A stretch of DNA of 64,000 bases, taken from sequence record NC_047754.1. One strand, given 5' to 3'. This document shows, one piece after another, positions 60,633 through 63,978 of the stretch. The position numbers and the translations under genes were made by a program. The stretch's first letter is position 1. Each line of letters opens with the position of its first letter. Under the pieces are notes generated by a model. It searched no databases and was not told the DNA's origin. It saw only the letters and a program-made list of their open reading frames with translations. Source of the stretch: Escherichia phage phiAPCEc03.

Positions 60633-60950
60633 ATGACTTTTCATATTTTGATTGATGATGTGCGTAATCTTCACGGAATGGACATTATCATTCGAACCCC
60701 AGAAGCCGCTGTAGAGTTTCTGAATAAAACTGATACCACAGGCCACTTCGTTTATATGGATAATGACTTGGCTGTAGATGGTATGGAAGGTTATCAAATT
60801 CTTCGTTTACTCTTAGAATTTGGGCAGAGACCAAAGAAAGTGGTACTAGTAACCTCGAACCCAGTAGCTAAGCAACATATGCGTAATGATTTGCTTGACT
60901 TAGGGTACAAAGAAAACCCCAATCGTGTTGAATATGATTGGCAGGAGTAA
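60633..60950 (+). CDS. Small protein with receiver-like (CheY-like) fold signature, function unknown
   Basis: 105 aa; beta-alpha pattern HILIDDVRN...DIIIRTPEAAVEFL...FVYMDNDL...KVVLVTSNP. Confidence 0.45.
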   Translation: MTFHILIDDVRNLHGMDIIIRTPEAAVEFLNKTDTTGHFVYMDNDLAVDGMEGYQILRLLLEFGQRPKKVVLVTSNPVAKQHMRNDLLDLGYKENPNRVEYDWQE

Positions 60951-60955
60951 AAAGA

Positions 60956-61405
60956 ATGAAGGCAGCTTTGCTTTTAGTAGCTGCCCTTACCTTCAGCTTT
61001 AGTAGTCAGGCATCGCACGATGCAAAAGAAATAGATTGCATTGCTAAAAATATCTATTTCGAAAGTCGTGGTGAGGGCATAAAGGGAATGACGGCGATTG
61101 CACACGTTACTAAAAACCGTGTAAACTCCGGTAAATTCCCAGATTCCTACTGTAAAGTAGTATATCAGTCTAACCAGTTCTCTTGGGTATCTAAGAGACC
61201 AAAAGTTGATAAAACTGATGAGGCTTGGCAAACCGCTAAGAATTTAGCTAGAGTGATATACTACGTTGATTTACCACAAGATCCTACATATGGAGCACTA
61301 TACTTCCATAGTGGTAAAGATAAACCTTACTGGACAAAGAAGTTTAAGAAAACAACTAAGATTAAGGGACATACGTTTTATAAACCTGTTGTCACTAAAA
61401 CTTAA
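60956..61405 (+). CDS. Secreted SleB-like cell-wall hydrolase
   Basis: Signal peptide MKAALLLVAALTFSFSSQA, then CIAKNIYFESRGEGIKGMTAIAHVTKNRVNSGKFP...QFSW resembling SleB/CwlJ-type domains; ATG at 60956 with SD GGAG. Confidence 0.6.
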   Translation: MKAALLLVAALTFSFSSQASHDAKEIDCIAKNIYFESRGEGIKGMTAIAHVTKNRVNSGKFPDSYCKVVYQSNQFSWVSKRPKVDKTDEAWQTAKNLARVIYYVDLPQDPTYGALYFHSGKDKPYWTKKFKKTTKIKGHTFYKPVVTKT

Positions 61406-62095: not shown

Positions 62096-62124
62096 TTGCT
62101 AAATGCTTATAAATTCTGTATAAT
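62096..62124 (+). promoter_or_regulatory. T5-type early promoter driving the tRNA/ncRNA region
   Basis: TTGCTA at 62096-62101, 17-bp spacer, TATAAT at 62119-62124; no protein-coding ORF follows for ~900 nt. Confidence 0.7.
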
Positions 62125-62339
62125 ATATTCATAAATTAGGGAACAGCGAGCCGATTACGCTGAGTGCATAATCCCAACCGGAGCGCATTGAATAGAGTCG
62201 GTGGGTTAGTTGTAAAACTAGTACACAGGGGGCGGCAATCCCGGTTAGTGGCTAGAACGTGTAAAATGAGGCGTCTGAAACCTCTCCCCTAAACTCTTCT
62301 CTAATTTATAAATAGTGGGGTGTGGAAATCACTTATGTA

Positions 62340-62420
62340 GTAACACTGCCGTCCTAGTATAATTGGTATTATTAAGCCGTAACTGGTGGAAGATGTAGGT
62401 TCGAATCCTACGGTCGGTAA
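62340..62420 (+). ncRNA. tRNA-like element with canonical T-arm (possible degenerate tRNA)
   Basis: Canonical T-arm GTAGG-TTCGAAT-CCTAC at 62395-62411 and D-loop-like TAGTATAATTGGTA; I could not fold a full cloverleaf by hand. Confidence 0.3.
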
Positions 62421-62498
62421 GAACTGGATAACTGGTGCTTTTAACGTAAAAGCTTCCGAGGTTAGTTGCGCACTGCCTAAACCACGCGGTAGTTGGTT

Positions 62499-62520
62499 CC
62501 AGACTAACCAACCAGTCTGC
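62499..62520 (+). other. Stable hairpin in ncRNA region (processing site or terminator)
   Basis: CAGACT-AACCAACC-AGTCTG inverted repeat. Confidence 0.35.
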
Positions 62521-62921
62521 TGAATAGTTTTATTACGATTTAACTATGTCCAGGCTAAAGAAGAACTTTAGAAGGTATTCTAGGATAGTGAAGTTCTTTC
62601 TCCATATCGGAGTAGTTTTTCAAGCTATCCACAAAGTGGGAAATGCTGACATGAGAGATGTCACTAATGGTGCACAATAGCACAGGTAATTCGCGATAAC
62701 TCCTGTTGAGTAGCAGCAAAAGGCGGGAAGTCATGACCCCAAGCCTAACCGAGTCCTCAATATACCGCAGGACATAACCACTAAGTCACCCTGACTTAAA
62801 CTGGAAAATAATAGACGTTACTGTATTTTGTCTTGAAATACTTAATGAGTGAGACTTAGGACTCTCCCGGTATCGTCTGTATTTTTAAGAGTTTTTACGA
62901 GAGTTCTTAAAAATACTTAAA

Positions 62922-62996
62922 CGGGGTGTAGTCTAAGGGAGAGGCAGGAGTCTTCTAAATTCCTTTATGCAGGTTCGAATCCTGTCACCTCGGCCA
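62922..62996 (+). tRNA. tRNA-Arg (anticodon UCU), CCA encoded
   Basis: Hand-folded cloverleaf: acceptor CGGGGTG/CACCTCG (one G-U), U8, D-stem GTCT/AGGC, anticodon stem GGAGT/ATTCC with loop CT-TCT-AA, T-arm GCAGG-TTCGAAT-CCTGT, discriminator G then CCA. Confidence 0.7.
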
Positions 62997-63030: not shown

Positions 63031-63978
63031 ATGTTTAATACTAAAAATATGAAAGAACTGACTTCTGAGCAGAAAGTAATTCGTACTATTAAACGTTGGG
63101 GTATTGGTGCTGTAGTTGGTTTAGCAGGCTTGATTCTAGCCTTTAATTCATATACTATTGTTTCTGATGGTACGGTTAAAACCCAAACATTCCTGGGTAA
63201 AGTAGATCCTAATCCAGTATTGCCTGGTTTCCATCTTGTAAACCCGTTTGCATCTTTCGATACTTTTAGTACAAAAGATATTGCTGTAAAATTAGATAAA
63301 CTTCAGGTTCCTAGCCAGGATAAGTTTAAATCCACTGTTGACCTGACTGTTATGTTGCAGTTTGATGGTTCTAAGGCACCGATTAACCGTATTAATGCAG
63401 GTACTCAGGATCAAGCGTTAGACAAATATGTAACTGAAAAATTACTGTCTACTATTCGTGAGTTTGGTAAGTCTGTGCCTAAAGCACAAGATTTATTTGA
63501 TGCTAAAATCCAGGCTCAATTGCAAACTGCAATTCAACAAGAAGTTGAAGAGTATGCACGCCCATATGGTTACACAGTTAAGCAGGTATTCCTTCAGGAT
63601 ATTACTCTGCCACCAGTAATCATGGAACAGGTACAGAATACCAAAGTTCGTGAAGAACAAGTTAATGCTGCGAAAGCTGAATTGGCTCGCGTTGAACAGG
63701 AAGCACAGCAAAAAGTTAAACAAGCAGAAGCAGACCGTGAAGCTCGCAACAACCAAGCTATTGCCAATGAACGTGACGCAGATGCTAAACTGTATGCAGC
63801 TAAGAAAGAAGCTGAAGCTAACGCCGCGCTGCAACGTACCATTACTCCTGAGATGATTCGCTGGAAGCAACTAGAAGTTGAAATGATTCGTGCTCAGAAG
63901 TATCAAGGTGGTGTACCGCAGACTGTGGTTGGCACTGGTTACGATGGCCAGATGATTATGGATATGCGTAATAAGTAA
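63031..63978 (+). CDS. SPFH/band-7 (prohibitin/HflK-like) membrane protein
   Basis: 315 aa; N-terminal TM helix (GIGAVVGLAGLILAF), SPFH-like core, C-terminal Ala/Glu/Gln-rich coiled coil; SD AAGGAAA. Confidence 0.6.
   Translation: MFNTKNMKELTSEQKVIRTIKRWGIGAVVGLAGLILAFNSYTIVSDGTVKTQTFLGKVDPNPVLPGFHLVNPFASFDTFSTKDIAVKLDKLQVPSQDKFKSTVDLTVMLQFDGSKAPINRINAGTQDQALDKYVTEKLLSTIREFGKSVPKAQDLFDAKIQAQLQTAIQQEVEEYARPYGYTVKQVFLQDITLPPVIMEQVQNTKVREEQVNAAKAELARVEQEAQQKVKQAEADREARNNQAIANERDADAKLYAAKKEAEANAALQRTITPEMIRWKQLEVEMIRAQKYQGGVPQTVVGTGYDGQMIMDMRNK

Follow-up and report, generated by a model that had tools for sequence, protein, structure and literature searches.

The stretch of DNA analysed here (the window) comprises 64,000 nucleotides (nt) of Escherichia phage phiAPCEc03 (NC_047754.1) and is a segment of a Tequintavirus, i.e. 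T5-like phage, genome. Close to its end, on the plus strand at 63031-63978, lies an intact open reading frame (ORF) of 315 amino acids (aa), which starts with ATG, includes its stop codon in the given span and is preceded by a Shine-Dalgarno sequence (AAAGGA) about 8 nt upstream of the start codon. Its product shares 99.4% identity with the phage T5 protein T5.080 (YP_006908.1), and the DNA around the gene is 97-98% identical to that of phages HK6, phiP4, SE11 and slur09. The ORF is the T5.080 homologue and encodes a true member of the SPFH (Band 7) superfamily; T5.080 is used below for both proteins. Its parts are as follows:

63031..63978, plus strand: coding sequence of the T5.080 homologue, a prohibitin-like SPFH/Band 7 membrane protein of 315 aa (ORF list, Pfam, PHROG, Foldseek)
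63097..63159, plus strand: codons of the single N-terminal transmembrane (TM) helix (approximately residues 23-43), 3' of the codons of the basic, predicted cytoplasmic tail (residues 1-22) (hydropathy, charge counts, AlphaFold2 (AF2) model)
63148..63606, plus strand: codons of the SPFH domain proper (approximately residues 40-192), including the VPSQDKFK motif (residues 93-100) (AF2, Pfam, alignment)
63613..63900, plus strand: codons of the first (CC1, residues 195-270) and second (CC2, residues 273-290) coiled coil, the predicted cage wall (AF2, composition, indels)
63922..63966, plus strand: codons of the C-terminal beta hairpin (residues 298-312), predicted to form the cap or crown of an SPFH cage (AF2, conservation)

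A sequence-only reading of this stretch had described an ORF adjoining a tRNA gene, with an N-terminal TM helix, an SPFH-like core and a long Ala/Glu/Gln-rich coiled coil, and each of these elements was recovered. The ORF list, ARAGORN and Rfam agree on the gene and its tRNA neighbour. One hydrophobic segment is present at approximately residues 23-43 (Kyte-Doolittle 19-mer mean of 1.79), and the Pfam family Band_7 (PF01145) matches residues 52-225 with E 2e-17 and 64.2 bits against a gathering cutoff of 23.6. Residues 205-275 are rich in Ala, Glu, Lys and Gln (18, 11, 7 and 7 of 71 residues, respectively), and the strand-loop motif VPSQDKFK at residues 93-100 falls into invariant columns of the family alignment. 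The protein also matches PHROG 200 (E 1.7e-86). An AF2 monomer model, computed from a family alignment of 22 sequences (predicted local distance difference test score, pLDDT, of 77.7), consists of a TM-anchor helix (residues 12-39), a mixed alpha/beta SPFH domain (40-192), CC1 as a single unbroken helix of 76 residues (195-270), the CC2 helix (273-290) and a C-terminal hairpin with strands at 298-302 and 308-312. The hairpin has low confidence in the monomer (pLDDT approximately 50); the sequence of the C-terminal strands is highly conserved in the family alignment. T5.080 possesses the complete architecture of an SPFH cage subunit: basic N-tail, TM helix, SPFH domain, CC1, CC2 and beta hairpin.

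The sequence-only reading had hinged on profile support for an SPFH fold, which was obtained from Pfam, PDB and Foldseek searches alike. When the AF2 model was compared with known structures by Foldseek, SPFH cage subunits were aligned over approximately 260-310 columns with a probability of 1.00, namely erlin1/2 (E 1.8e-13), PHB1/2 (4e-12), HflK/C (2.8e-11), stomatin (3e-11), QmcA (1e-9) and flotillin (2e-8). Erlin and prohibitin thus outrank stomatin and QmcA in structural terms. Searching the PDB with the single sequence gave QmcA (E 1.8e-6) and PHB2 (E 8.6e-5). With the family profile, QmcA and PHB1/PHB2 were the only families found: PHB1/PHB2 were matched over residues 40-237 (E 1.4e-4 to 3e-4), and QmcA scored above them (E 2.4e-7), mostly through the coiled coil (residues 155-254). 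Since the leading structural hits are without exception cage subunits, and since neither a second SPFH gene nor an NfeD gene lies alongside, we infer that T5.080 probably forms a ring or cage on the inner membrane and that this assembly is homo-oligomeric.

Further support for such an assembly, short of proof, came from the length of the coiled coil, which was determined for 133 homologues as the distance from one conserved anchor to another. It amounted to 65 residues in 110 of them, to 76 in 21, and to 54 and 87 in one each, so that all 23 length variants differ by -11, +11 or +22 residues. Insertions and deletions phased by hendecads are what would be expected if neighbouring helices stayed in register within the barrel wall of an SPFH cage, and they favour a ring or cage formed by T5.080, as does the very high conservation of the C-terminal strands.

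The current name of the protein is a different matter. Both RefSeq (YP_006908.1) and PHROG 200 call it a lipoprotein. T5.080 contains no cysteine at all, hence no lipobox, and the chance that it is a lipoprotein is practically nil. Among the 39 family members checked, most had no cysteine and none had a lipobox-like motif. Automated annotation has spread the name to records of T5, T4-like and N4-like phages, once in the form 'lipopritein'. A weak match to PHROG 11227, named 'protease' (E 0.001, residues 185-288), was also discounted, as it falls in the low-complexity coiled coil.

The sequence-only reading had further likened the protein to HflK/C- or prohibitin-type scaffolds. The scaffold type is borne out by Foldseek and by the profiles; orthology with HflK or HflC is not. 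An NCBIfam scan of the protein returned no family at E<=1 from a library expected to carry HflK/HflC equivalog models, and alignment of the family profile by hhalign with E. coli HflK (probability 11%) and HflC (66%) covered 42-48 columns, comprising the TM helix and the first strand only. Judged by these comparisons, T5.080 is not an orthologue of either protein. Gene organization differs as well. E. coli hflK and hflC form a tandem pair, whereas a single SPFH gene was present in all loci examined, with no pair of the hflK-hflC type, and neither an adjacent SPFH paralogue nor a protease gene was found in the phage and cellular loci. HflK is 419 aa long and bears a long N-terminal extension, which is absent from the 315-aa T5.080. 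The periplasm-facing HflK/HflC-FtsH cage, with subunits of an architecture like that of T5.080, nevertheless offers a model for how a phage cage might affect proteolysis.

We then examined how widely the gene is distributed. Homologues were detected by tblastn in 724 phage records. T5-like phages that infect Escherichia, Salmonella, Shigella and Proteus carry copies with 90-100% identity, and the direct homologues in T4-like and N4-like phages are 35-79% identical to T5.080: T4-like phages infecting Klebsiella, Enterobacter and Cronobacter have copies with 73-79% identity, T4-like Aeromonas phages have copies with approximately 60% identity and an N4-like Vibrio phage has one with 35%. SPFH/Band 7 genes also occur in RaK2-like and Vi01-like phages, and structural relatives were found in Vibrio, Rhizobium and Streptomyces phages as well as in Tupanvirus, Marseillevirus and Pandoravirus. 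An exhaustive profile search yielded 342 clusters (50% identity) at E<1e-10 and 1966 at E<1e-3. We regard 342 clusters as few for the widespread SPFH superfamily, which is a judgement and not a measurement, and T5.080 accordingly appears to belong to a distinct, stand-alone, prohibitin-like clade.

Chromosomal relatives were sought in one genome per prokaryotic species. They were found in Morganella and Providencia (57-59% identity) and, at 31-41% identity, in Methylococcales, Methylophagaceae, Desulfocapsaceae, Myxococcota and other metagenome-assembled genomes (MAGs). Their contexts are of the housekeeping kind: trpFBA-accD-folC lie upstream in Methylophagaceae, and in Methylococcales the SPFH gene is flanked by DUF2782 and an NDH-2-type oxidoreductase. 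At eight Methylococcales loci (L021, L022, L025-L028, L031 and L033) an NDH-2-like flavoprotein gene follows downstream on the same strand, overlapping in L022, and at one Methylophagaceae locus (L032) a malate:quinone-oxidoreductase (Mqo)-like gene lies on the same strand 3' of the SPFH homologue. This might reflect a possible link of the clade to respiratory quinone reductases, or else inherited synteny.

Neighbour joining recovered the methylotroph/MAG group as sister of the phage group, with the Morganellaceae copies nested inside the phage radiation. Their nearest relative is P0113, a homologue in a divergent T5-like phage in which the local gene order is the same (RNase H ... Hydrolase_2 - YqeY - gap - Band_7). 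From this nesting, exchange of the gene between T5-like phages and Morganellaceae, in either direction, appears likely. The Morganellaceae copies (loci L007-L019, for example CP173058.1 2338911-2349837) are chromosomal, lie outside prophages and occur in many species, and their flanking genes differ between Providencia and Morganella.

The gene is under strong purifying selection in unrelated virulent phages of the T5-like, T4-like and N4-like groups. Ratios of nonsynonymous to synonymous substitution rates (dN/dS), calculated by the Nei-Gojobori method, were 0.009 between the window and T5, 0.048 between the window and JLBYU43, and 0.063 between the window and Stitch. In the comparison with T5, 26% of synonymous sites differ, yet only 2 of 315 residues do. 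Homologues in 724 phage records combined with dN/dS values of 0.009-0.063 mean that the ORF is real far beyond chance. Such conservation also bears on the idea that the protein serves in counter-defence, with the cage trapping or neutralizing abortive-infection effectors that permeabilize the inner membrane. An early-region accessory gene that the phage can do without on a laboratory K-12 host would suit this role, as would patchy distribution and natural loss variants, which are typical of arms-race genes. However, dN/dS of 0.01-0.06 and 72-79% identity between T5-like and T4-like copies are unlike fast-evolving counter-defence genes, our literature search found no link between SPFH proteins and anti-phage systems, and there was no similarity to PADLOC families. 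We therefore consider counter-defence improbable.

Two natural variants deserve mention. Phage JLBYU43 (OK272477.1; locus L068, 1501-2517) encodes a 338-aa version with a perfect tandem duplication of a 23-residue TM segment (TIKRWGIGAVVGLAGLILAFNSY repeated). This would add a second membrane span and thereby flip the SPFH domain across the membrane, and the version is perhaps a naturally occurring variant with lost function or altered topology. In E. coli phage NG_S8 (LC788711.1 28690-28815), just residues 274-315, the last 42 codons, remain; this remnant of a natural deletion fits dispensability of the gene.

As for membrane topology, the 22-residue N-terminal tail contains six Lys/Arg residues and has a net charge of +4. 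Four Lys/Arg flank the TM helix on its N-terminal side vs two within the 15 residues after it. The N-flank was the more basic one in 24 of 39 family members, with the bias clearest in the phage clade, where a dibasic motif just before the TM helix is conserved and 3-5 Lys/Arg are present. By the positive-inside rule, a basic N-flank corresponds to an N-in/C-out protein with a periplasmic SPFH domain, and we regard a cytoplasmic N-terminus with a periplasm-facing cage as the likely arrangement, held with slightly less assurance than cage formation itself. The SPFH domains of HflK/C, prohibitin and erlin also lie on the non-cytoplasmic side.

The opposite orientation (N-out, C-in) would make T5.080 a cytoplasm-facing scaffold of the stomatin/QmcA type, which could organize phage or host proteins such as replication or assembly factors. 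QmcA is indeed the best single-sequence match in the PDB and scores higher still with the profile; stomatin and QmcA are strong Foldseek matches too, and members of the cellular clade show just a weak charge bias. QmcA (YbbK) is moreover similar to T5.080 in length and in its Ala/Glu-rich coiled coil with 11-residue repeats. On the other hand, the N-tails of the phage proteins are consistently basic, whereas the QmcA alignment starts near the QmcA N-terminus; the charges flanking the QmcA TM helix are distributed in the opposite way, predicting opposite topology; the QmcA profile match is mostly coiled coil; and erlin and prohibitin are structurally ahead of stomatin and QmcA. The pairs QmcA-YbbJ and stomatin-NfeD include an NfeD partner gene, whereas none was annotated or detected beside the SPFH gene at the T5, T4-like, N4-like or cellular loci examined. 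A cytoplasm-facing scaffold thus appears unlikely, and we retain the periplasm-facing cage in what follows.

Its closest counterparts would be PHB1/PHB2 of the mitochondrial inner membrane and erlin1/2 of the endoplasmic reticulum. These share the domain order of T5.080 (basic N-tail, TM helix, SPFH, CC1, CC2, C-terminal cap) and form exoplasm-facing cages, the orientation predicted for T5.080 as well. They differ in several respects: identity is just 15-19%, prohibitins and erlins are hetero-oligomers of two paralogues whereas T5.080 is a single gene, they work with partners (m-AAA protease, RNF170) for which T5.080 has no known equivalent, and T5.080, unlike them, is encoded by a virus and has the Gram-negative inner membrane as its predicted site. 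As for virions, an SPFH protein was detected in them in one study of a jumbo phage (PMC7760394), whereas no such report is known for T5.

Finally, we examined the transcription unit. The features upstream of the gene are:

62096..62124, plus strand: sigma-70-like promoter TTGCTA-17-TATAAT, equivalent to T5 P16-17 (scan, 10/12 matches; T5 feature mapped)
62138..62921, plus strand: region equivalent to T5 rnaX (T5 annotation, blastn coordinate mapping)
62922..62996, plus strand: tRNA-Arg(TCT) (ARAGORN; Rfam tRNA 49.3 bits; T5t25 in the T5 annotation)

The T5 annotation gives the order promoter P16-17, rnaX, tRNA-Arg, T5.080, major nick site and bidirectional terminator, the last two of which lie just past the end of the window. 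The site at 62096-62124 was the only good sigma-70-like one found upstream of the coding sequence on the plus strand in the region scanned, and the scan detected no promoter-like site in the 34 nt between the 3' end of tRNA-Arg(TCT) and the ATG. With its sole good promoter at P16-17 and none past the tRNA, the gene would be co-transcribed with tRNA-Arg, and it most likely forms the final cistron of a transcript that includes the tRNA. On the classical T5 map, its region belongs to what we take to be the early part. Knock-down of T5.080 by CRISPRi-ART was scored 'Not Fit', i.e. there was no fitness cost and the gene was dispensable (PMC11879866, supplementary files 8 and 16). The HIDEN-SEQ essentiality preprint covers T4, Bas37 and Bas54, with T5-like phages outside its set.

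Position in an early, P16-17-driven unit and dispensability in single-phage laboratory assays, typical of exclusion genes, are also what might be seen if T5.080 acted as an envelope barrier. A periplasmic cage could hinder entry of the genome of a secondary phage or seal the damage that the infecting phage itself causes with its DNA-injection channel, with a purpose like that of T4 Imm/Sp or T5 Llp and a structure unlike theirs. The predicted periplasm-facing orientation and the presence of the gene in several unrelated virulent phage families with common hosts fit superinfection exclusion too. Yet we know of no SPFH protein that acts as an envelope barrier or exclusion factor, no similarity to known exclusion proteins or match in PADLOC was found (no family at E<=0.1), and the housekeeping contexts of the cellular homologues argue for a general role in membrane organization. 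A role in adsorption or DNA entry has been speculated about in one paper (PMC13239085). On balance, a barrier function appears as unlikely as the cytoplasm-facing scaffold.

Neighbouring genes offered little guidance. No PHROG family was common to the neighbours in four phage lineages, and clustering of neighbours by BLAST across 57 cellular and phage loci revealed lineage-specific synteny only. One recurrent arrangement could nonetheless suggest an accessory in lysis timing, with the cage tuning the holin/antiholin system in the periplasm or inner membrane; the sequence-only reading had raised lysis timing as one possible role, next to modulation of a membrane protease of the host. The order tk - x - rI - rI.-1 - SPFH occurs in the T4-like phages GAP161, leE and Roth27, where the antiholin gene rI was confirmed by a PHROG lysis inhibition match (E 6e-29), and the periplasmic domains of T4 RI and holin share the compartment predicted for the SPFH cage. 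Nevertheless, these three genomes are syntenic and probably represent one insertion in the variable tk-rI-nrdC.11 region, so that adjacency to rI, confined to syntenic T4-like genomes, is weak evidence for lysis. T4-like Aeromonas phages have different genes right beside it (a pilin-like ORF and PHROG 9870), the annotations of T5 and of the N4-like Vibrio phage show no rI-type lysis-inhibition gene close to the homologue, and the T5 gene sits in a tRNA and stable RNA unit, away from lysis genes. Lysis timing is consequently, like counter-defence, a rather remote prospect.

As for the pilin-like ORF, T4-like Aeromonas phages carry directly 3' of the SPFH gene a 75-aa ORF with a pilin-like N-terminus, which matches PHROG 3433 'pilin' (E 6.7e-6); examples are gp069 of Aeromonas phage 60AhydR15PP (locus L003, 5026-5253) and 3391-3615 of locus L072. 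The same pair is recognizable in phage 44RR as the neighbours ORF097c, with an N-terminal methylation motif, and ORF098c, with the SPFH domain (PMC1524935). The pilin-like ORF may be a lineage-specific partner of the SPFH gene in these phages.

Several further observations were made upstream. The rnaX-equivalent region is approximately 150 nt longer in the window than in T5. It contains on the plus strand, at 62348-62419, a 72-nt tRNA-like element detected by Rfam (35.9 bits, gathering 29, E 1.3e-5) and not called by ARAGORN, and GenBank records of some close relatives list tRNA-Ser or 'tRNA-OTHER' in this region. T5 'stable RNA X' may thus host a degenerate or unusual tRNA. Farther upstream, at 60938-61405 on the plus strand, lies the homologue of T5.083 (155 aa), which has an apparent signal peptide, matches endolysin PHROGs and, by these features, appears to be a secreted cell-wall hydrolase. 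Pfam Hydrolase_2 (SleB-like) matches its counterpart in a divergent T5-like phage, where the gene order Hydrolase_2 - YqeY-like - gap - SPFH is retained.

What might such a cage on the inner membrane do during infection? The role of phage SPFH genes has been called 'unclear' or 'poorly understood' (PMC13239085; PMC7760394). The literature search found annotation mentions and speculation but no work on the function of any phage SPFH protein, and 'T5.080' had no match in full-text search; some recent papers speculate about HflKC/FtsH and lysogeny. The model we propose starts from a homo-oligomeric T5.080 cage on the periplasmic side of this membrane in the host cell, which would be made, given its position in the early map region, when the host no longer renews its own proteins. 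The cage would fence off patches of the inner membrane and so restrict access of FtsH to membrane proteins, or it would corral FtsH itself; the clients could be host respiratory or transport complexes, or membrane proteins of the phage. Membrane function and energy supply would thereby be kept up through the latent period, as an accessory role invisible to laboratory plaque or fitness assays. For the mechanism as a whole, i.e. a cage which shields membrane proteins from FtsH or corrals FtsH and in this way sustains energy supply, we estimate a probability of roughly one in three.

The precedent for this mechanism is cellular. HflK/C cages are described to surround FtsH and gate its access to membrane substrates (PMC12048511), and loss of HflKC is described to render IspG and TonB less stable and to lower respiration, in parallel to prohibitin defects (PMC12005517). 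The quinone-reductase genes found directly 3' of the SPFH gene in two cellular lineages provide weak context in the same direction.

Several points weigh against the mechanism. The adjacency to NDH-2 is limited to one bacterial order and possibly represents inherited synteny. As no specific similarity to HflK/HflC is present, interaction with FtsH is not inferable from homology. The positive-inside count is the sole basis of the topology, cellular members of the clade show the Lys/Arg bias just weakly, and QmcA, the closest sequence match in the PDB, faces the cytoplasm. Knock-down of the gene carried no fitness cost, and the existence of the JLBYU43 and NG_S8 variants means that any benefit must be conditional.

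Public annotation already includes the SPFH identity of T5.080. In GenBank, several near-identical proteins from T5-like phages are recorded as 'SPFH domain / Band 7 family protein', some relatives are named 'prohibitin family protein' or 'PHB domain-containing protein', and the SPFH domains of the T4-like copies 44RR ORF098c, Aeh1 ORF064c and RB43 ORF139c have been on record since 2006 (PMC1524935). What is added here is the correction of the label, the stand-alone clade with its cellular relatives, the rule of 11-residue insertions and deletions, the strength of purifying selection, and a testable model of the topology and function of T5.080. The product name 'lipoprotein' in PHROG 200 and RefSeq is mistaken and ought to read 'SPFH/prohibitin-like membrane protein'.

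Prohibitin, HflK/C, stomatin, flotillin and other SPFH scaffolds occur in all kinds of organisms, and viruses have repeatedly acquired their genes. Deletions of SPFH genes often have no phenotype, as illustrated by P. aeruginosa with its nine SPFH genes (PMC13086221). T5 is a tractable model in this respect, its gene being short, highly conserved and dispensable, and a conditional phenotype of T5.080 would give a clean handle on the role of SPFH cages in the bacterial inner membrane. More speculatively, and with less confidence than we place in the mechanism above, T5.080 and its relatives could be a viral 'prohibitin', a periplasm-facing, homo-oligomeric phage cage that takes over inner-membrane proteostasis in the shut-down host, either by confining FtsH or by protecting respiratory and transport complexes, and keeps the cell energized until lysis. 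If true, this would for the first time define the function of a viral SPFH cage, and it would explain the repeated capture of SPFH genes by large virulent phages and giant viruses.

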